Shown here one piece after another: positions 46,322 through 64,000 of a stretch of DNA of 64,000 nt (its first letter is position 1; the number at the start of each line of letters is the position of its first letter). A model generated the notes under the pieces. It had not been told where the DNA came from. It did not search any database and worked only from the letters and a program-made list of their open reading frames with translations. This stretch comes from a virus (lineage: Duplodnaviria; Heunggongvirae; Uroviricota; Caudoviricetes): IMG/VR virus record IMGVR_UViG_3300040801_001888; one strand, 5' to 3'. The position numbers were made by a program, and so were the translations under genes.

Positions 46322-46384
46322 GGTCTTTCCTCTCAGGTTGCGGTTGTGGTTGATGGTCCGGGTTGCTCCCTGACCATGGAAAGT

Positions 46385-46412
46385 ATTATACAGTAGCTAA
46401 CGTGTCAGTCAA
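46385..46412 (-). promoter_or_regulatory. sigma70-consensus promoter (TTGACT-N16-TATAAT) + conserved 60-nt leader
   Basis: Minus-strand TTGACTGACACGTTAGCTACTGTATAAT; leader ...ggtcagggagcaacccggaccatcaaccacaaccgcaacctgagaggaaagaccATG. Confidence 0.6.
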
Positions 46413-46520
46413 GCGTTTATTTCGATTTATTTTGCTTTCCTGTTGCGCCGCTTTTCGGCGGCGTTTCCGTTTAGTGTGGTCGGTACCCAATACCAACCGC
46501 GTTCAGGATCTCGGCGTCGA

Positions 46521-47222
46521 TCAGCGGCGGCTAATCGGAGAGGCCGCTGGCGTTGACCTGCGCTGCCCAATCATGGACTTACGTTTGTTTGAACGCTCGC
46601 GCGCTAAGCCAGGGTTGCCTTTCCAGGAGGATTCGTAGCTCTCCGGCAAACGGGCTTTTTTGACCTTTATGGCGTAAATCAGCTTCGGAACCACTGTCTT
46701 GCGCGTGTGCTTAGCTTTTAGCCCGCCGCTCCCTTTCTCCTGGGCGTGTTGTTTCGTGTTCCCCTTGGTGACCCCGAGAAAGGTCCAGTTGTCCGCGAGG
46801 TAGAGCGTACCTAGTCGATCGGATTGCCCGTCGCGGCGTTCCTCAATAATGAAGGTCTCGAACCCGGCGACCTTCACGCCGTAAAGGTACTCCCAGTCCC
46901 ACGCGATCCGCTTGCGCCAAGCGGACAAGATGCGCGTGGCTCTGTTTGGCGCGGGCACCTCGAGCCTGAAAACGTTGTTACTGATGATCCCGTTCAGCTG
47001 CACTTGCTTGACCGCTTTGCTTTTGCTGAGACCGAAAAAACGATCGCGCGGACCGACGTCGTACGTTGCGCTGGCGCCGCTGATGATGCCGACCAGCTCG
47101 CCGCTGTCAAACGCCAGGTAATGCAGTTGCTGACCGTGGCATCCGCTGTTAGGGATGTAGTGTCGGTCTCGGATCGACTTATAGCGCGGGTCGGTGCGCT
47201 TAACACATTCAAGTTCAATCAT
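46521..47222 (-). CDS. R-M-operon-associated protein of unknown function (basic C-terminal tail)
   Basis: 233 aa; 4-nt overlap with the REase-like gene; C-terminal ~80 aa are Lys/Arg-rich; no DPPY/NPPY motif. Confidence 0.45.
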   Translation of the reverse strand: MIELECVKRTDPRYKSIRDRHYIPNSGCHGQQLHYLAFDSGELVGIISGASATYDVGPRDRFFGLSKSKAVKQVQLNGIISNNVFRLEVPAPNRATRILSAWRKRIAWDWEYLYGVKVAGFETFIIEERRDGQSDRLGTLYLADNWTFLGVTKGNTKQHAQEKGSGGLKAKHTRKTVVPKLIYAIKVKKARLPESYESSWKGNPGLARERSNKRKSMIGQRRSTPAASPISRR

Positions 47223-48100
47223 TGTTGCTCTCGATAGAACCCTGTCGGTACGCTCCTAACTGTCAGCGACCCACCAAACGCGCCGGGTTTTATATTGCTT
47301 TTCATGTGGCTACGCCACTGCAACGTAAACCCAGAGGAGGTCAAAGAGATAATGTGCAACGGCTTCTGAACGCTGCCGCGCGTCTCTATAACTACGTCCT
47401 GTTGCGGCAGGGGGATTTTGCGGCAGTTGAGGGAGCCGTGAAAGTTGTACCCGTCTATCATAGCGCCGTCGCTTCCCCCTATGAGTAGGTAGTGGTCGGT
47501 ATGCCCTAACGCGGCACGGAATATCTGAATGAGGTCTTGGCGCCTCCTCAGTTCTTTCTCTATGATAGTGACCGCTACGATCTCCGCTATCGTGCGTTGG
47601 GGCGGGACGTTTTTGGAGTAGCGCCCCTTTTGGTCTTCCAAGAACCAGAGAATCGACTGTATGTCGTTTCGATATTGGGGGCTGGTTTCCAACTCGCCAG
47701 GGAACGGGAGATAATCAATGTTCTCTTGACGTATTCGGTGCCCCGCCACTTCGCGGCTGTTGTGCTTGACCGAGCACGGTACTTCGCGTCCCCCGCTGCC
47801 GTAGCAAGTGATGTCGGCGAAATTGTGGTTTTGCCCTGTCAGCTTCACAGTGTGAATATCAGGCTCTTTATTCAATAGCTTTTCAGCAAGCCATTTCGCC
47901 TGTTCACGCATCCGTCTACGGCGAGCAAACGCCGCCTTGACGCCCTTGTCGTCTTTTGCCAACCCTGGCATTGATCTCACGGCGTAAAGAACCGACGATA
48001 GCCTAGCATCGCGGATTAGCTTGACCCCGGGTTGCTTGCTAATTGCAAACGCTACTGCGTACTCCATTGCCAGTCCGTTCGATACTCTTATCTGGTTCAT
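47219..48100 (-). CDS. candidate type II restriction endonuclease
   Basis: ~293 aa from MNQIRV; its ATG overlaps the TGA of the Dam-like MTase (ATGA); lower GC than neighbours; size and position consistent with a DpnII/MboI-like partner of a GATC methylase, but no motif proves nuclease identity. Confidence 0.5.
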   Translation of the reverse strand: MNQIRVSNGLAMEYAVAFAISKQPGVKLIRDARLSSVLYAVRSMPGLAKDDKGVKAAFARRRRMREQAKWLAEKLLNKEPDIHTVKLTGQNHNFADITCYGSGGREVPCSVKHNSREVAGHRIRQENIDYLPFPGELETSPQYRNDIQSILWFLEDQKGRYSKNVPPQRTIAEIVAVTIIEKELRRRQDLIQIFRAALGHTDHYLLIGGSDGAMIDGYNFHGSLNCRKIPLPQQDVVIETRGSVQKPLHIISLTSSGFTLQWRSHMKSNIKPGAFGGSLTVRSVPTGFYREQQ

Positions 48101-48903
48101 TCTTCTGCGCCTCTGCTGAGGATGATAACCTCGGCGCCGTCTTTCTCCGCGCTCATGCCGTACTTCCACTCCTTCGGGATCGAACGCAGACCCGCGTACA
48201 GCTTACGGACTTGCTCGCAGTCGTTGTAGCTCAGCACCCAACGCACGCCGTGCATGTCGAGCTTGCGCAAGATGTTGCTGAGCTTTAGGTGGTTGAAGTC
48301 GTCCCCGTGGGCGCTGCCCTTGTCACCATACAGCTTGTTCTTGCCGTTGGTCAGCAGATAGGGCGGGTCCAGGTAGATCGTCGCTGGGGCGGCGAACCGA
48401 AGCGGGCGGCGGCGCAGGCTATCGAACGCATCGGCTGACCCGAACGACAACCCCGGCGGCGGGACAAAGTCGGCGAGGCGCTCCAGCGCGCTTTCGGTAT
48501 AACGGTCAGCAGACCCCATGCCGCCTGATAGCGTCGTGCCGGAAAAGGAACTGCGGTTGACGGCGTAGAACCAGCACGCTTGCTGGAATGGCGTCCCGTA
48601 TCCAGCGCGCAGTTGATTCTGCGCCAATGCGAACATGTCCTTGTCCATGGGGAAGAAGCGCCGGCGCAGGTAGCTCGCCATCGCCGGTCCCTGCCCAGCG
48701 AAGACCTGCTTCCAGAAGTTGACGAGGGGCTGGAAGGCGTCGCGAGCGACAACCTTGCCGTTGGGGTTTGCCGCAAGCCAGGCAAACTCAACCGCGCCGC
48801 CACCAAAGAAGGGGCTGTAGAGCGTCGTCGTGTCTACGGGAATCAGTGGTAGGATCTTGGTCGTGGCGCGTTGCTTGCCGCCGGGGTAGCGTAGAAGGCA
48901 CAT
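48097..48903 (-). CDS. Dam-like (D12-class) DNA N6-adenine methyltransferase
   Basis: N-terminus MCLLRYPGGKQR (RYPGGK AdoMet motif of the Dam/DpnM family) and catalytic DPPY (IYLDPPYLL); 268 aa. Confidence 0.85.
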   Translation of the reverse strand: MCLLRYPGGKQRATTKILPLIPVDTTTLYSPFFGGGAVEFAWLAANPNGKVVARDAFQPLVNFWKQVFAGQGPAMASYLRRRFFPMDKDMFALAQNQLRAGYGTPFQQACWFYAVNRSSFSGTTLSGGMGSADRYTESALERLADFVPPPGLSFGSADAFDSLRRRPLRFAAPATIYLDPPYLLTNGKNKLYGDKGSAHGDDFNHLKLSNILRKLDMHGVRWVLSYNDCEQVRKLYAGLRSIPKEWKYGMSAEKDGAEVIILSRGAEE

Positions 48904-48969
48904 AGTGCGGAATCCTCTCAGGTTGCGGTTGTGGTTGATGGTCCGGGTTGCTCCCTGACCATGGAGAGT

Positions 48970-48997
48970 ATTATACAGTAGCTAGCGTGTCAGTCAA
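48970..48997 (-). promoter_or_regulatory. sigma70-consensus promoter (TTGACT-N16-TATAAT) driving the MTase/REase operon
   Basis: Near-identical copy of the 46,385 element, including the same long leader and the RBS gagaggattccgcactATG. Confidence 0.6.
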
Positions 48998-49167
48998 GCC
49001 TCTTTTTTTTTCTTTTTTACCTTATCGTAAGCTTCCAGAGCTTGCGGCATTGTCGTGTTGATACCTTCACGCGCTTGCGTCGCGACAATGGCTCTCGCGA
49101 ACAGTTCGCGCCGCAATTGGGCGCTTTTAAGGATTCTCGGTAAGAGTGCGCGCCGGCTGCTCTTCAC

Positions 49168-51001: not shown

Positions 51002-51045
51002 ATCGGCGTTCCTCTTAGGTTGCGTTTGTTGCTGCGATGGAGAGT

Positions 51046-51073
51046 ATTATACATGGCTTGCGTGTCAGTGCAA
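51046..51073 (-). promoter_or_regulatory. sigma70-consensus promoter (TTGCAC-N16-TATAAT)
   Basis: Minus-strand TTGCACTGACACGCAAGCCATGTATAAT + leader catcgcagcaacaaacgcaacctaagaggaacgccgatATG. Confidence 0.6.
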
Positions 51074-51107
51074 GCCTTTTTAGCTCTCTTATCGACTAAC
51101 GAGTGAT

Positions 51108-51884: not shown

Positions 51885-51927
51885 GATGCGTTCCTCTTAG
51901 GTTGCGTTCGTTGCTGCGATGGAGAGT

Positions 51928-51955
51928 ATTATACAGGGCTTGCGTGTCAGTGCAA
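51928..51955 (-). promoter_or_regulatory. sigma70-consensus promoter (TTGCAC-N16-TATAAT)
   Basis: Identical core to 51,046 and 54,876; same CATCGCAGCAACGAACGCAACCTAAGAGGAACG leader. Confidence 0.6.
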
Positions 51956-52014
51956 GCCCTTTCTTCGATTTATTTTGATTCTTTCAGGGCGCCGTCCATG
52001 GCGTGGCGCGGCGG

Positions 52015-52239: not shown

Positions 52240-53368
52240 GTGCGTTCTCCTGGAAAGGGTTAGCCGCTCGTGGTATCGGTTTCGGGGTACGGTTCAGACA
52301 AGGCGACACGTACTGCCGCAGGATCTGCACAGCTTCGTTGAGCCGAGCCTGGAACTCCTCCGGGTAGCGATCCGGGTGTATCAAGCGGATCAGTTTACTG
52401 AACGTCTCCACCGGCATGATCGCGGTCATGCCCTCACGGATCTGGCGCGCTCGGCGAGCCTCGGCCATCCTTTGCCGTTCGAGATCCGACGCAGCGTCGA
52501 GCTTCACCTGCCACTGGGCGCGGAGCTTTTCCATCTCGACGCGCAGTTCGGCGTTACCGACCGCGCGGATGCGGGCGACCTCCTTCTGCACGAGCTGGTC
52601 GAACTCGCGCTGCTTACGCTGGCTCAGCGTTTCCTTCTGCTGTTGGATCTCCGCCTTAACAGTATCGGGCTCGCGCGCGGCTTTAAGCTGGTAGGCGATC
52701 TCTTGGTGCCGCTGGATTTGTTCCGGCGTGCAGCCTCCTTGCGGGAACTGCGCGTCAGGAGCGATCTCCAGGATGGATTGCTTCAGGGCGGTCTTCTGTA
52801 CCGAGCTTAGGTTCGATCGCGGGCACAGTTCGGCGTCGCCATAGGGCAGCGTCCAGGACTGGCGCACGGGCTTGCTTTCCGTCTTCGGCTTGCTCTCGGT
52901 CTTCAGCTTGCTCTCGGTCTTCAGCTTGCTCTCGGTCTTCGGCTTGCTCTCGGTCTTCGGCTTGCGTGCCTTCACCTCCTTACGTACTTGGTTCACGGTC
53001 CAGTCCTCTTTAGCGGCTCGCTCCAGTACCTCGGCGCGTTCCTCGGGGGTGGGCAGGCTGGCGGCGACTTCGTGAGCCCTAAAGCAGATGTCAGTCCGAA
53101 CTGACATTTGGTATTTCTGGCTTACGCTTGCGTAATTACGGGCTACTGCGTAGTTCAGCCCCGCCTTCTCACACGCCGCCTTCTTGTCGCCCCAGGGGAT
53201 GCCGTTGTACCAGTCGCCGATCAGCCACTGGAGGGACTTGTCCGCGCGTCCGAGTGCGGTGCCCATGTCGAGCCACTCTTGCTCGGTTGGGTCGCCATGG
53301 ACCTCCAACCCCGTCAGGGTTGCGCGCAGGTTCGGGGTTGAGTCGATTTCGATCATTTCGTTATCCAT
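52232..53368 (-). CDS. J-domain (DnaJ-like) protein with a central KPKTES tandem-repeat tract
   Basis: C-terminal FSKLIRLIHPDRYPEEFQARLNEAVQIL carries the HPD tripeptide in J-domain helix context; the centre has (KPKTES)n encoded by an 18-bp tandem repeat. Confidence 0.5.
   Translation of the reverse strand: MDNEMIEIDSTPNLRATLTGLEVHGDPTEQEWLDMGTALGRADKSLQWLIGDWYNGIPWGDKKAACEKAGLNYAVARNYASVSQKYQMSVRTDICFRAHEVAASLPTPEERAEVLERAAKEDWTVNQVRKEVKARKPKTESKPKTESKLKTESKLKTESKPKTESKPVRQSWTLPYGDAELCPRSNLSSVQKTALKQSILEIAPDAQFPQGGCTPEQIQRHQEIAYQLKAAREPDTVKAEIQQQKETLSQRKQREFDQLVQKEVARIRAVGNAELRVEMEKLRAQWQVKLDAASDLERQRMAEARRARQIREGMTAIMPVETFSKLIRLIHPDRYPEEFQARLNEAVQILRQYVSPCLNRTPKPIPRAANPFQENAHG
52871..52960. 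repeat. 18-bp tandem repeat x5 (cttgctctcggtcttcRg) encoding (KPKTES)n on the minus strand
   Basis: Direct reading of the sequence; four perfect and one degenerate copies. Confidence 0.8.
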
Positions 53369-54826: not shown

Positions 54827-54875
54827 GTCGTTTTACCTCATGTTTGCCGCAGCGGTTGTTGCTGCGATGGAGAGT

Positions 54876-54903
54876 ATTATACAGGGCTTGCGTGTCAGTG
54901 CAA
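54876..54903 (-). promoter_or_regulatory. sigma70-consensus promoter (TTGCAC-N16-TATAAT)
   Basis: Identical core; located between the terminator at 54,936-54,972 and the gene starting at 54,826. Confidence 0.6.
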
Positions 54904-54935
54904 GCCTTTTTCGATACTATTTTTCTTCAGACAAA

Positions 54936-58870: not shown

Positions 58871-58909
58871 AAGCGTAGTGGCGACTTAGCCCCCTGAAAC
58901 GTAGGGACA

Positions 58910-58950
58910 GGCGAGACTTTCGGGGAGATCCCGGGTCTCGCCTTTTTTTT
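58910..58950 (+). terminator. rho-independent terminator of the primase-helicase gene
   Basis: GGCGAGAC...GTCTCGCC 8-bp stem (with inner GAGATCCCGGGTCTC palindrome) followed by T9. Confidence 0.7.
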
Positions 58951-58967
58951 TCAGCGCAATTTTTTTC

Positions 58968-59038
58968 TTGCGAAAGTTTTTTTGCGAAAGTTTTTTTTGC
59001 GAAAGTTTTTCGCGCTGTTTCTTTTGCGAAAATTTTTT
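58968..59038. repeat. four direct iterons TTGCGAAAGTTTTT, origin-like
   Basis: cttgcgaaagttttttt / ttgcgaaagttttttt / ttgcgaaagttttt / ttgcgaaaatttttt at 14-15-bp (then 27-bp) spacing immediately after the primase terminator. Confidence 0.6.
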
Positions 59039-59039
59039 G

Positions 59040-59300
59040 TACGAGAAAAAAAGCGTGAAGGCCCCGACGTTTTGGAACGCCATTTTCAAAACGTATGGTA
59101 AAACGTAGGGGAGAAAAATATGCCTATTTTCAATGCTTTAACTGTCTATAAACTACATAACTACGTTACTACGTTTAGTTTGGAAAACTCTATATAGGAA
59201 TTCTCTTTTTGGAATGTGTATGAATTAGGGCAAAAGTACACGTTCCCAAAATACAAACTGAAATGTATATAATGTTTGGGAGGGCCACGTAGGGCGTAGA
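59040..59300. other. AT-rich island (about 30-35% GC against ~60% background) with repeated AACGTAGGG / ACTACGTT motifs
   Basis: Visibly A/T-dominated sequence with no convincing ORF; motifs aaacgtaggga, aaacgtatgg, aaacgtagggg, cacgtagggcgtagaaacgttgg. Confidence 0.55.
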
Positions 59301-59377
59301 AACGTTGGTTCAGCCGCCTTGCGGCGGTCTGTTCCGGGAGGGCGCGATTTGTACACGAAAGCGCGGTGCTTGACAAC

Positions 59378-59416
59378 GAAAAGCCCCGACCGCATCGCTG
59401 CGGTCGGGGCTTGGTT
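59378..59416 (-). terminator. hairpin terminator downstream of the MTase-nuclease cassette
   Basis: GCCCCGACCGCATCGCTGCGGTCGGGGC perfect 11-bp stem; minus-strand tail TTTTCGTT. Confidence 0.5.
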
Positions 59417-59423
59417 TGGTGCG

Positions 59424-59924
59424 TTAGATTGTGGACATGTACGCGCGGAGGGATTTTGTTGATGTCAGGACGCGGACCTCGCGTTTCGTGGTGTGGCACC
59501 ACGTTAACGCGCCATCGCGCACGCCATCCCCCAGAACTACCAAAACAGGCTCCATTGTCGGCGCGATGGCTTCCAGTGACAGTAGCCAGAACGGGAGCTT
59601 CTCATCAACGCTTCCCGATGTCCCCTGGTACTTCATTTCGATCAGCACTGGGCGGTTCCCCGCCTTGAACGGCGCGACGACGAAGTCCGCCTTGAACGGC
59701 GCTTTGTAGATCGATTGGTATGCTGGGATTTGCGTGTAGAAGAAACCCGGCTTGACTAGTAGCACCGGGTCAGCGCCGGCGTTGCACGCCAGAACCACGC
59801 TGGTGCGGTCTTTTCCCTCCGCCTCTTGGTACCCTCGGGCAAGCAGGTGGTCGTGGATGATCTGCTCGCCGAGGCGCCCTGATGTGTTGGCATGCACGCC
59901 TCCGTCTGGTTTTTGGCGGCTCAT
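59424..59924 (-). CDS. small PD-(D/E)XK-like nuclease candidate
   Basis: ...KADFVVAPFKAGNRPVLIEMKYQ... fits the D-x(n)-E-x-K core; 4-nt overlap with the upstream MTase gene. Confidence 0.45.
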   Translation of the reverse strand: MSRQKPDGGVHANTSGRLGEQIIHDHLLARGYQEAEGKDRTSVVLACNAGADPVLLVKPGFFYTQIPAYQSIYKAPFKADFVVAPFKAGNRPVLIEMKYQGTSGSVDEKLPFWLLSLEAIAPTMEPVLVVLGDGVRDGALTWCHTTKREVRVLTSTKSLRAYMSTI

Positions 59925-60574
59925 CGGTTGGCGCTCCTGTCGCGCTTCTGGATTGAGTCCACGTAACCCATGAATGGGAAGTGGGCTTTGCCCCGCGTGC
60001 CTGTTGCACCCTCAAACGCTTCGCGGGCGCGTCGTTGCGAGTCCCTTCTGTCAAGGCTTCTGTCGAAGAACAGTATCGATTGGCCCCTCGTGTTGCCCGA
60101 GACCTTTTTGCCGTCGACGTTCTCGAAAGCGATGCGTCCGAAGGGCATACAAACCGCAGTCAGGTACTCACAGTCGCGCAAGGATTTGTACCAAACCGTT
60201 TCCGTAGCGTTGTTGACTAGGACCACACCACGTTCGAAGTGTCCTGATTCCAGGTGTGCTACGAACGCCTGGATGGCGCCGTGCACCACGCCCCGCCCAT
60301 AAGGAGGGTTCATAAAGACGGTCCGCGCATGCGGCCATGGGGTGCGGATGGCGTCGTCGTCCTTGGTGTAGAACTGTTCAGCGTGAACGCCCCCTGGACG
60401 ATTGTTGGCGGCGATGCTGGAGAACGGGTCGAAGTCAATCGACCCGCGCTTCCTATCCAGCGCCCACCGAACGCGGGCGATGATGTCGGCTGGCGTGAAC
60501 CAGGAGTCGCTGTCCCGATTTTCGCCAGGCTTAGCGCCGATGTAGGCGAGTTTGTTTTTGTCTGCGATGTTCAA
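59921..60574 (-). CDS. phage-type DNA N6-adenine methyltransferase (T1/Dam PF05869-like), TTG start
   Basis: SWFTP and NPPYG (motif IV) in a 217-aa protein; RBS aagagg 8 nt upstream of the TTG. Confidence 0.7.
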   Translation of the reverse strand: MNIADKNKLAYIGAKPGENRDSDSWFTPADIIARVRWALDRKRGSIDFDPFSSIAANNRPGGVHAEQFYTKDDDAIRTPWPHARTVFMNPPYGRGVVHGAIQAFVAHLESGHFERGVVLVNNATETVWYKSLRDCEYLTAVCMPFGRIAFENVDGKKVSGNTRGQSILFFDRSLDRRDSQRRAREAFEGATGTRGKAHFPFMGYVDSIQKRDRSANR

Positions 60575-60597
60575 TGGCTAACCTCTTGAAAAGTAAA

Positions 60598-60632
60598 GTT
60601 CACATTTGTGAACAGACACAAACTGATGTGTC
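60598..60632. promoter_or_regulatory. two adjacent palindromic operator-like sites upstream of the TTG start of the phage Dam gene
   Basis: GTTCACATTTGTGAAC (perfect 7-2-7) and GACACAaactgatGTGTC (6-6-6). Confidence 0.45.
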
Positions 60633-60671
60633 GAGACAAGCATAGTGTAACGAAGACAAAGAACGCAAGCA

Positions 60672-60708
60672 GCAAAAAAGCCCCGATCGCATCGCTGCGA
60701 TCGGGGCT
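60672..60708 (-). terminator. rho-independent terminator (leftward) upstream of the MTase-nuclease cassette
   Basis: GCCCCGATCGCATCGCTGCGATCGGGGC (near-identical to the 59,383-59,410 hairpin) followed on the minus strand by T6; a second hairpin (CCCCGGTGC...GCGACCGGGG) lies at 60,731-60,760. Confidence 0.55.
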
Positions 60709-60793
60709 TGATCTGGTGCTACAATGCGAAACCCCGGTGCACTACGAATGCGACCGGGGCTTCTCCCTCAACACCTCACAGACAGGTATCAAG

Positions 60794-61459
60794 ATGCTTC
60801 CCATCTTAGCAGACACGTCAGTCTCCATGAACAGCCGCGAGATCGCGGAGCTGGTCGATTCTCGCCATGACAGCGTTAAGCGTGCTGTTGAGCGCCTCGC
60901 CGAAAGAGGAGTTATCACCCAGCCACCGACGGTGGATGGGATGAAATCAGCAAACGGCGTGATCGAAAAGCTCTACGTCTTCGACCAGGCGCACAAACGC
61001 GATTCCATCGTGGTGGTGGCACAGCTAAGCCCTGAGTTCACCGGCAAGCTGGTGGATCGCTGGCAAGAGTTAGAGGCGGGGGCTAAGCCGGTCGCCCTCT
61101 CAACCGGCGCTTTTCTGCTCCAGCAGGCGCAGATGCTCTACGAGATGGAACAGCGCCAGGCAGCAGCTGAGCAGCGCCAGGCGGCGACCGAGCAGCAGGT
61201 TGCGAAGATCACGGAGCGGGTCCAGCAGACGGAGACGGCGGTCGACTACTTCAGCGTGATTGGTTACCACCGTTACGTGCGGCGTGACGGTGATCTGACG
61301 CTGCCCCAGGCACAAGCCATGGGTAAGACGGCGACCGGATATTGCCGGGACCACGGCGTGCCTATGGCCGAGACCCCGGACCCCCGCTTCGGACGGGTCA
61401 ATACCTATCCGAAGTGGGTTCTTGACCACCTGTTCGGACCTGAGCAGTCCGCGCTGTAG
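60794..61459 (+). CDS. Rha-family phage regulatory protein
   Basis: MNSREIAELVDSRHDSVKRAVERL matches the conserved Rha N-terminal motif; start chosen downstream of the tandem minus-strand terminators that lie in the annotated 5' extension. Confidence 0.5.
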   Translation: MLPILADTSVSMNSREIAELVDSRHDSVKRAVERLAERGVITQPPTVDGMKSANGVIEKLYVFDQAHKRDSIVVVAQLSPEFTGKLVDRWQELEAGAKPVALSTGAFLLQQAQMLYEMEQRQAAAEQRQAATEQQVAKITERVQQTETAVDYFSVIGYHRYVRRDGDLTLPQAQAMGKTATGYCRDHGVPMAETPDPRFGRVNTYPKWVLDHLFGPEQSAL

Positions 61460-62523: not shown

Positions 62524-62551
62524 ATTATACAGGGCTAGCGTGTCAATGCAA
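62524..62551 (-). promoter_or_regulatory. sigma70-consensus promoter (TTGCAT-N16-TATAAT)
   Basis: Minus-strand TTGCATTGACACGCTAGCCCTGTATAAT upstream of the 62,488 start. Confidence 0.55.
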
Positions 62552-62763
62552 GCACTTTTTCGATAGATTCAAGAAATGCGTAACGACTGCAACACCGACA
62601 AGCCACAGAAGCACCCCTGGCACCCGATCGCCGATGTGGCGTGCGGCTACGATGAACGGATGACGGCAGCGGGCTGTTCCGGTTGCCATCGGCAGCGCGA
62701 GGAGTCGGCACTTGAGCAGTTGCAGCGGCTGGACGCCCGGCACACCGTCGATGGAATCGTGAA

Positions 62764-63479: not shown

Positions 63480-64000
63480 AAAAAGATCGAAAGATAGGAT
63501 GGTCCCACCCTTCAGGTGGTTGCGGTAGGTTTTTGTATTGCCTCAGACGGTTGTAGCGGCAAAGCCGTAAGATAAGTTGGTTCCAGACCTTGACACCCTA
63601 GGGTAGATTTTTCGGTAGAATTTCGGGTTGCCTCAGGTGGATGTTCGCTAAGTCGTTGAAAACAAAGTCGAACGATAAGACGACCTTTACCCTCAAGAGG
63701 TTGCGGTAGAATTTTCGGTAGATTCGAGGCTTCGTTCGCTAAGTCGTTGATTTCAAAGGCGAACGATAAGACGACCTTTACCCTCAAGAGGTTGCGGTAG
63801 GTTTTCGCAAAGCCTCGAGCCGATCTATGGGGTCGTCCACGATTTGGCGTGTCCACATTTCGTGACCTTGACTGAGAAGCAGTCGCATTTGCAAGTGCTT
63901 GATTTTTGGTAGAATTTTCTGAAACCACGGGAAGCCGAGCCCGCTGTTCCGTCTCGCAGACGGCATCGGGAAGCCGAGCCCGCTGTTCCGTCTCGCAGAC
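63480..64000. repeat. non-coding repeat-rich region to the right of the early block
   Basis: Perfect 41-bp direct repeat cgaacgataagacgacctttaccctcaagaggttgcggtag at 63,669-63,709 and 63,760-63,800; at least 6 copies of GGTAG(A/G)(A/T)TTT(T/C)G; a 33-bp duplicate gggaagccgagcccgctgttccgtctcgcagac at 63,929-63,961 and 63,968-64,000. Confidence 0.6.

Follow-up and report, generated by a model that had tools for sequence, protein, structure and literature searches.

A candidate GATC restriction-modification module, made of a T1-Dam-like methyltransferase and a small PDDEXK_11 nuclease, in an uncultured Caudoviricetes phage

Two overlapping genes, coding for a predicted DNA adenine methyltransferase and for a small protein of the PD-(D/E)XK nuclease type, lie between two near-identical hairpins in the genome of an uncultured Caudoviricetes phage, known from the IMG/VR record IMGVR_UViG_3300040801_001888. 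The 64,000 nt of this phage that were analyzed are called here the window. The locus raises the question of what the two proteins do together, and of whether the hairpins belong to the unit formed by their genes. The pair is read here as a phage-borne Type II restriction-modification (R-M) module, in which a T1-Dam-like methyltransferase (M) would be matched by an endonuclease (R) for the tetranucleotide GATC; we give this reading a probability of about two in three. A second miniature R-M system was one of the options left by the original prediction, which had been drawn from the letters of the window. It is favoured by the conserved linkage of the two genes, by the association of the nuclease with three families of methyltransferases, by the fold of the nuclease, and by the purge of GATC from carriers that have no methyltransferase. 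The option of a methylation-dependent system, put forward at the same time, is disfavoured.

Both genes are encoded by the minus strand. The methyltransferase gene (59921-60574, 217 aa) starts with TTG, and its stop codon overlaps the start codon of the nuclease gene (59424-59924, 166 aa) by 4 nt (ATGA). These are the only open reading frames (ORFs) between the hairpins, where no gene for a C-protein controller of the helix-turn-helix type was found. The methyltransferase is a member of the N6-adenine DNA methyltransferases of T1-Dam type. It matches the Pfam family PF05869 (Dam) with 57.7 bits (E 1.6e-15; cut-off 28.1), as well as PHROG 111 and the orphan-methyltransferase models of PADLOC. 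The DPFSS (AdoMet-binding) and FMNPPYG (catalytic) motifs are invariant in an alignment of 11 partner methyltransferases. Usage of the TTG start is supported by the N-terminus MNIADKNKLAYIG, which matches ATG-started homologues residue for residue, and by an AAGAGG Shine-Dalgarno sequence (60582-60587) located 7 nt upstream of the TTG. The other methyltransferase of the phage is a D12-class enzyme; the early description of this one as a second, unrelated, T1/Dam-like enzyme initiated at TTG was therefore correct.

The 166-aa product, described from the start as PD-(D/E)XK-like and linked to the methyltransferase by the 4-nt overlap, was assigned by profile search to PF20472 (PDDEXK_11) with 72.8 bits (E 3.3e-20; cut-off 23.7). 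Its fold is restriction-enzyme-like, and the predicted catalytic residues E20, D80, E96 and K98 are all intact. Across 84 family members E20, E96 and the GSVDEK stretch are invariant, K98 is nearly so, and D80 is the consensus residue; the window protein carries the motif GSVDEKLPFW, reported as invariant. Foldseek matches in BFVD were weak (TM ~0.5), a sequence search of PDB gave no match, and Pfam gave none to PF04556 (DpnII) or to the MutH/Sau3AI families, even at E <=1. Relatives are few: 7 in a word-indexed search of 5.8 billion proteins, 665 in a profile search, and 639 in an exhaustive search with hidden Markov models (HMMs) of 1.84 billion representatives of 50% identity clusters, just 5 of them with E<=1e-30. 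A tblastn search of 50,697 phage records found no match to the window nuclease or to a distant family member. Proteins of the family nearly all stand alone and measure 145-200 aa. The Pfam name is generic, and members that carry a name in the sources appear there as "PD-(D/E)XK nuclease superfamily protein" or as hypothetical proteins. The window nuclease is most likely, as judged from its sequence and genetic context, a small restriction endonuclease cutting unmethylated GATC.

Some leads on the nuclease family were followed and dropped. A RE_XamI (PF09572) tag on two members had an insignificant E value (0.066), and a scan of genome contigs for the nuclease returned false positives only, such as a Smithella ABC permease with a chance VDEKLPFW. 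A cyanobacterial member encoded beside hetZ is not PatU3, which exceeds 170 aa (PMC9457339).

Homologous loci were gathered from other viral, metagenomic or bacterial contigs, and are denoted by L-numbers (L005 to L111); 80 additional nuclease-family loci were taken from metagenomes, and their ORFs were called. Neighbours of the nuclease genes were classified with HMMs built for this analysis, and unknown neighbours were run against Pfam. Relationships among nucleases were analyzed in a neighbour-joining tree, and the survey of loci includes 97 of them. Close homologues of the window nuclease (39-58% identity) have the same type of methyltransferase directly upstream, overlapping or nearly so, wherever the contig reaches. 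The T1-Dam-like gene and the nuclease gene are paired in L005, L006, L009-L013, L016, L017 and L022, within contigs which otherwise hold unrelated genes, and also in L107, L108 and L111. Every member of the clade of the window nuclease, drawn from about ten other viral or metagenomic contigs, has a T1-Dam-like partner in the tree. The methyltransferase gene of L017 is split by a scaffold gap of Ns, and is not a pseudogene. Viewed from the methyltransferase side, the association is restricted: a nuclease gene follows the T1-Dam-like gene in only 4 of the 80 most similar IMG/VR loci. The four have similarity ranks 1, 2, 3 and 6. Paired enzymes thus make up a small and coherent group within a family whose members are mostly orphan.

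Across the nuclease family as a whole the partner varies. About half of the 97 loci feature an adenine methyltransferase gene at <=450 nt, of the T1-Dam-like (18 loci), D12 (26 loci) or N6_N4 (CcrM-like, ~5 loci) type. Gene order is likewise variable. M precedes R in some loci, R precedes M in L019, which is part of a 4.2-Mb bacterial chromosome, and the two genes are convergent, with overlapping ends, in L018, an Anabaena chromosome. A nuclease family that repeatedly changes its methyltransferase partner and its gene order shows the pattern classically left by Type II restriction enzymes.

The recognition site was predicted from the partners and from the composition of the carriers. The D12 partner in L018 matches DpnM with E 2.8e-78, and L048, in which genes for a T1-Dam-like enzyme, a Dam-like enzyme and the nuclease follow each other, has a Dam-like enzyme matching E. 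coli Dam with E 3.7e-80. As DpnM and E. coli Dam are both GATC enzymes, GATC is the predicted site. If an unopposed restriction enzyme is encoded by a genome, that genome must lack its site. One derived clade of the nuclease tree has no methyltransferase, and consists of marine phage-like contigs only (within L024-L100; e.g., L025, L027, L049, L093). In this clade the neighbours of the nuclease gene are of two kinds. On some contigs a UDG-exonuclease (or Thy1) gene flanks it on one side and the polymerase half of DNA polymerase A on the other; on others its flanks are two unknown ORFs, of 161 aa and 120 aa. GATC was found there 2 times versus 167 expected in 56 kb, and 0 versus 247 in 80 kb, for a total of 2 versus ~414 expected in 136 kb; 34 of 35 loci are GATC-free. 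GATC is by far the most depleted palindrome in these contigs. Since it is gone in every context, the site would consist of these four letters alone, and not of a longer word containing them.

Loci equipped with a methyltransferase retain the site, with 182 GATC versus 296 expected in the T1-Dam-like pairs and 342 versus 403 in the D12 pairs. In 76 viral loci with an orphan Dam 1983 were counted versus 2239 expected, and none of the 76 is GATC-free. The window holds 434 GATC, and 440 are expected. Showing no avoidance, it is uninformative on specificity when taken alone; by the same token, the phage would need its methyltransferase against its own nuclease. Provided that the protein is a restriction enzyme, we consider it probable that GATC is what it recognizes. 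GATC is poorly represented in some phage contigs in spite of the M-R pair (3 versus 28 expected in L016, 1 versus 20.5 in L107, 7 versus 30 in L017, 20 versus 46 in L012), which fits some remaining selection against the site despite the presence of a methyltransferase.

Several observations weigh against an R-M module specific for GATC. The methyltransferase scores 55.9 against the NCBIfam equivalog TIGR01712, below the cut-off of 97.05; being above the Pfam cut-off, it is a family member and not an equivalog. Characterized T1-type phage Dam enzymes are GATC-specific, and the specificity of the window enzyme would be an extrapolation from those of T1, VT-2 and HP1. The nuclease has no match in PADLOC, PHROGs and NCBIfam. 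About half of the sampled family loci have no adjacent methyltransferase, and in some of these the nuclease gene is embedded in a replication module, between the exonuclease and polymerase genes of a DNA polymerase. The GATC-free contigs form one monophyletic clade of marine phages, in which host enzymes, rather than the phages' own nuclease, could have driven GATC avoidance as a trait of the lineage. From the CcrM-like partners, specificity would seem to vary within the family, and some branches may have shifted. A scan for the sigma-70 consensus found no promoter for the M-R operon in the window. Presence or absence of the block could not be compared in close relatives of the phage, as none were found by megablast, blastn and tblastn versus the 50,697 phage records; scans of IMG/VR with the nuclease, the primase and the hairpin pattern similarly gave no close relatives, and retrieved only the same phage.

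The region upstream of the methyltransferase gene (60575-60675, minus strand) is the leader and control region of the operon. It includes, besides the Shine-Dalgarno sequence, the palindrome GTTCACAAATGTGAAC (60598-60613), the interrupted palindrome GACAC-N8-GTGTC (60615-60632) and the 8-mer TTTGTCTT (60653-60660). Two palindromes had been anticipated between the upstream hairpin and the methyltransferase start, and both are there. The 16-bp one, GTTCACATTTGTGAAC, occurs once in the window; GACAC-N8-GTGTC, taken alone, is not above chance. The nearest informative homologue, L005, features a perfect 32-bp palindrome which is as far from the start codon as the palindrome of the window. In the comparison of L005 and the window the cores read TCAACA-AA-TGTTGA against TTCACA-AA-TGTGAA, and are reported as the same core. 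The 8-mer is found upstream of the methyltransferase gene in the window, in L005 and in L013, where it abuts a perfect TTGACA-17-TATAAT promoter, and in inverted orientation in L016. It is expected 0.87 times per whole window, and the chance of such sharing is estimated at ~1e-3, post-hoc choice allowed for. Conservation of the 8-mer in homologous modules points to a promoter/operator that moves together with its genes, and palindrome and 8-mer together probably make up an autoregulatory operator.

According to this organization, the methyltransferase would mark adenine, most likely in GATC, and shield the 434 GATC sites of the phage. The nuclease would cut the same site if unmethylated, its targets being the chromosome of a Dam-negative host, or the DNA of competing or co-infecting phages. 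The methyltransferase would be translated first, from a weak TTG, and the nuclease would be made only by ribosomes that have read M, a safe order for establishing an R-M system. The Shine-Dalgarno sequence of the nuclease, AGGAG, sits inside the 3' end of the methyltransferase gene; with the TTG start, AAGAGG and the ATGA coupling, this internal signal would let the nuclease appear after, and in proportion to, the methyltransferase. The left hairpin would end the M-R transcript. The right hairpin would block leftward transcription into the M-R promoter, and would probably terminate an antisense RNA coming from the region of the Rha/Ant-like gene found on that side.

The hairpins are exactly as first described: GCCCCGACCGCATCGCTGCGGTCGGGGC (59383-59410) and GCCCCGATCGCATCGCTGCGATCGGGGC (60680-60707) measure 28 bp, have the same orientation and are identical at 26 of 28 positions. 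No further copies occur in the 64 kb at <=3 mismatches, and 0 of 100 shuffles gave a match. The two mismatches are compensatory (C8/G21 versus T8/A21), and a perfect 14-bp stem with a 4-nt loop is consequently kept in both copies. Predicted folding energies of the RNAs are -30.8 and -35.1 kcal/mol (z -5.5 and -6.4). Both hairpins were called as intrinsic terminators of the minus strand, with 14 pairs and tails of TTTT (left, hairpin 59381-59412) and TTTTTT (right, hairpin 60678-60709), in agreement with their early interpretation as leftward terminators. Each is part of a longer repeat of 44 bp, the two copies of which (59379-59422 and 60676-60719) are 91% identical; similarity ends there. The left hairpin starts 11 nt past the nuclease stop codon, the right one sits between divergent genes. 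The four differences between the 44-bp copies all create GATC in the right copy, which has three sites (60685, 60699, 60710); the left copy has none, and none is found in the methyltransferase gene. The cluster of three sites was not retained as special, because 12 such clusters were observed in comparison with ~10 expected at random.

The repeats had prompted the idea that the whole block is an insulated moron or mobile cassette, the hairpins serving as its ends, or as recombination sites. It can be argued in favour of insertion sites, or of a target duplication, that 44-bp direct repeats exactly flank the promoter-M-R unit, that the M-R pair resides in unrelated contexts elsewhere, and that the block could be lost by recombination from one repeat to the other. 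The comparison with other loci speaks otherwise. Seven other M-R loci with enough flanking DNA (L013, L016, L107, L108, L111, L022, L012) keep both genes, and have neither a flanking hairpin nor a flanking direct repeat >10 nt; a pattern search of IMG/VR did not find the hairpin. Relatives that lack the hairpins while keeping both genes were named as a refuting case by the original prediction itself, and on that criterion the hairpins lie outside the module. The phage was recovered as nine contigs from five samples, and the region is identical in all, with no empty-site variant. A recombinase gene is not adjacent. The GC content of the hairpin-to-hairpin block is that of the remaining genome. 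The terminators are complete, and their compensatory stem changes denote selection on RNA structure. Other intergenic elements are reused in this phage (the D2/D3 family in five copies, D4 in two), so that duplicated regulatory DNA is a habit of the genome, and not the mark of a cassette. A cassette delimited by the repeats is thus quite unlikely. What stands of the idea is the portability of the unit: promoter/operator, M and R, as seen in the homologous loci, behave as a module that is portable among unrelated phage contexts. The hairpins are best described as predicted Rho-independent terminators, derived from one 44-bp element duplicated in this phage.

Two further explanations concern the proteins. 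The methyltransferase might be an orphan enzyme of the T1/VT-2 type, with an anti-restriction or regulatory role, and the nuclease a co-transcribed protein with an unrelated job in recombination, junction resolution, repair or homing; a repair or resolvase nuclease beside an orphan methyltransferase had indeed been listed at the outset. This is unlikely. The nuclease is linked to three families of adenine methyltransferases, in all gene orders, in phages as in chromosomes, and the four nuclease-bearing viral methyltransferases rank among the six most similar to that of the window. The purge of one 4-bp palindrome by carriers without methyltransferase would be needless for a structure-specific or homing nuclease, and the phage already encodes elsewhere a RusA-like candidate resolvase. 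Alternatively, the pair could be a decayed or non-catalytic remnant, in which for example a DNA-binding protein with a nuclease fold regulates the methyltransferase. Operator-like palindromes are found upstream in spite of the missing C-protein gene, and some protein of the module may bind DNA. Conservation of E20, D80, E96 and K98, and the persistence of both ORFs at full length, identical across five samples, make this very improbable. An R-M module remains the preferred reading of the pair.

The closest functional analogue of the module is the DpnII/MboI type of system, whose GATC site is the one predicted here; the window nuclease would likewise be blocked by N6-methyladenine of the Dam type. 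Members of its family are paired elsewhere with D12 methyltransferases similar to DpnM and EcoDam, and the order found in L048, two methyltransferase genes followed by the nuclease gene, recalls dpnM-dpnA-dpnB. DpnII/MboI systems differ in having D12 methyltransferases (DpnM, M.MboIA), the N6_N4 enzyme DpnA and a PF04556 nuclease, in contrast to the phage-borne combination of PDDEXK_11 nuclease and T1-Dam type methyltransferase. DpnII is about twice the size of the ~160-aa nuclease. The closest kin of the methyltransferase are the orphan Dam enzymes of T1, VT-2 and HP1 (PF05869, TIGR01712), which belong to the same family, and are solitary rather than coupled to a nuclease. Phage Dam enzymes have been reviewed (PMC7556043).

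In biological terms the nearest parallel may lie in the chloroviruses and their R-M pairs. In PBCV-1, R.CviAI and M.CviAI act on GATC. There a virus of lytic type likewise carries a protective methyltransferase and an endonuclease able to shred unmethylated host DNA, but the host is an alga rather than a bacterium, the protein families are unrelated, and a role in host takeover can only be proposed for the phage pair. The chlorovirus systems have been described (PMC7248222). Like phage morons, the M-R unit is self-contained, has its own control region and terminator, and occurs in varied neighbourhoods. It differs from morons in that the terminator upstream of it is part of the adjacent transcription unit, and in that the promoter scan was negative.

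The neighbouring unit is the divergent gene for a Rha/anti-repressor-like protein (60794-61459, plus strand, 221 aa), which is outside the module. The public call of this gene (277 aa, 60626-61459, plus strand) reads through the terminator hairpin; homology begins only near the ATG at 60794, and the call is probably too long. The RNA of the minus strand folds between 60665 and 60795 into three hairpins (-74.1 kcal/mol, z -9.0), the plus strand reaching -59 (z -6.7). When the terminator hairpin is left out, the values are -38 (z -3.6) for the minus strand versus -25 (z -1.5) for the plus strand. The two remaining minus-strand hairpins (~60728-60762 and 60766-60794) cover the leader, the ribosome-binding site and the start codon of the Rha/Ant-like gene. 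A candidate minus-strand RNA of ~120 nt (60678-60797), the body of which would span 60710-60797, may therefore end at the right terminator and be antisense to the start of this gene. It would resemble the sar RNA, which controls ant in phage P22. No promoter was found for it.

The phage also encodes a DNA polymerase A, helicases, a primase and a thymidylate synthase; no integrase was seen among the ORFs examined. The gene of the D12 methyltransferase (48097-48903) is part of a block which includes a 316-aa ORF without family match (47219-48169) and a DruA-like ORF (46521-47222). The block is bracketed by a 111-nt direct repeat (46328-46438 and 48913-49023, 89% identical) that looks like a reused promoter/leader element. 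An intergenic element of 35-75 nt is present in five copies (27415, 51006-51080, 51888-51962, 54836-54910, 62524-62558). It contains TATTATAC followed by the hairpin GGGCTTGCGTGTCAGTGCAAGCCC, and its probable nature is that of a repeated promoter/terminator unit. An AT-rich island (58900-59350; GC 0.39-0.42 versus 0.59 overall) follows directly after the primase gene and its terminator. It holds about five tandem TTGCGAAAGTTTTTTT units (58950-59044) and might act as an origin or as a control region of bent DNA; a public 65-aa gene call in the island is of low complexity, and doubtful. Tandem repeats are found near the end of the window (63488-64000), with 91-nt units at 63605-63786 and a 34-nt repeat at 63928-63961 and 63967-64000. 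A coding tandem repeat of 18 nt, in 6 copies (52852-52983), is inside a 378-aa ORF. Rfam and tRNA scans over the window gave no matches. The window avoids GGCC (112 versus 387 expected), CCGCGG (0 versus 31) and GAGCTC (0 versus 13), presumably because of host restriction systems; GATC is not avoided.

In L018 (3989-5304, Anabaena sp. WFMT chromosome) the PDDEXK_11 gene is convergent with, and touches, the gene of the DpnM-like D12 methyltransferase, and seven related loci (L044, L053, L056, L073, L074, L087, L092) share this arrangement. Dam-like GATC methyltransferases of cyanobacteria have been described as orphan and essential (PMC4390886, PMC6105098). If those enzymes correspond to the partners found in loci of the L018 type, the reason for their essentiality may be that they keep a cognate nuclease in check.

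As a Type II R-M system the module would be of an ordinary kind; the nuclease family is uncharacterized and rare, and the hairpins are, for the window, reused terminators. On a broader scale, PDDEXK_11 could constitute an unrecognized family of minimal (~160 aa) GATC restriction endonucleases, from which phages protect themselves in two modes, by a Dam-like methyltransferase or by a genome purged of GATC; we hold the odds on this generalization to be about even. If true, a function and a recognition site would be attributed to an uncharacterized Pfam family with only 639 clusters among 1.84 billion, and a very small GATC endonuclease would be added to the enzyme toolbox. A subset of the T1-type phage Dam enzymes supposed to be orphan would correspond to halves of R-M systems. 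The two modes would offer a natural comparison between viruses that methylate the site of their own nuclease and viruses that delete it, and the failure to delete some "orphan" Dam-like methyltransferases would have an explanation open to testing.

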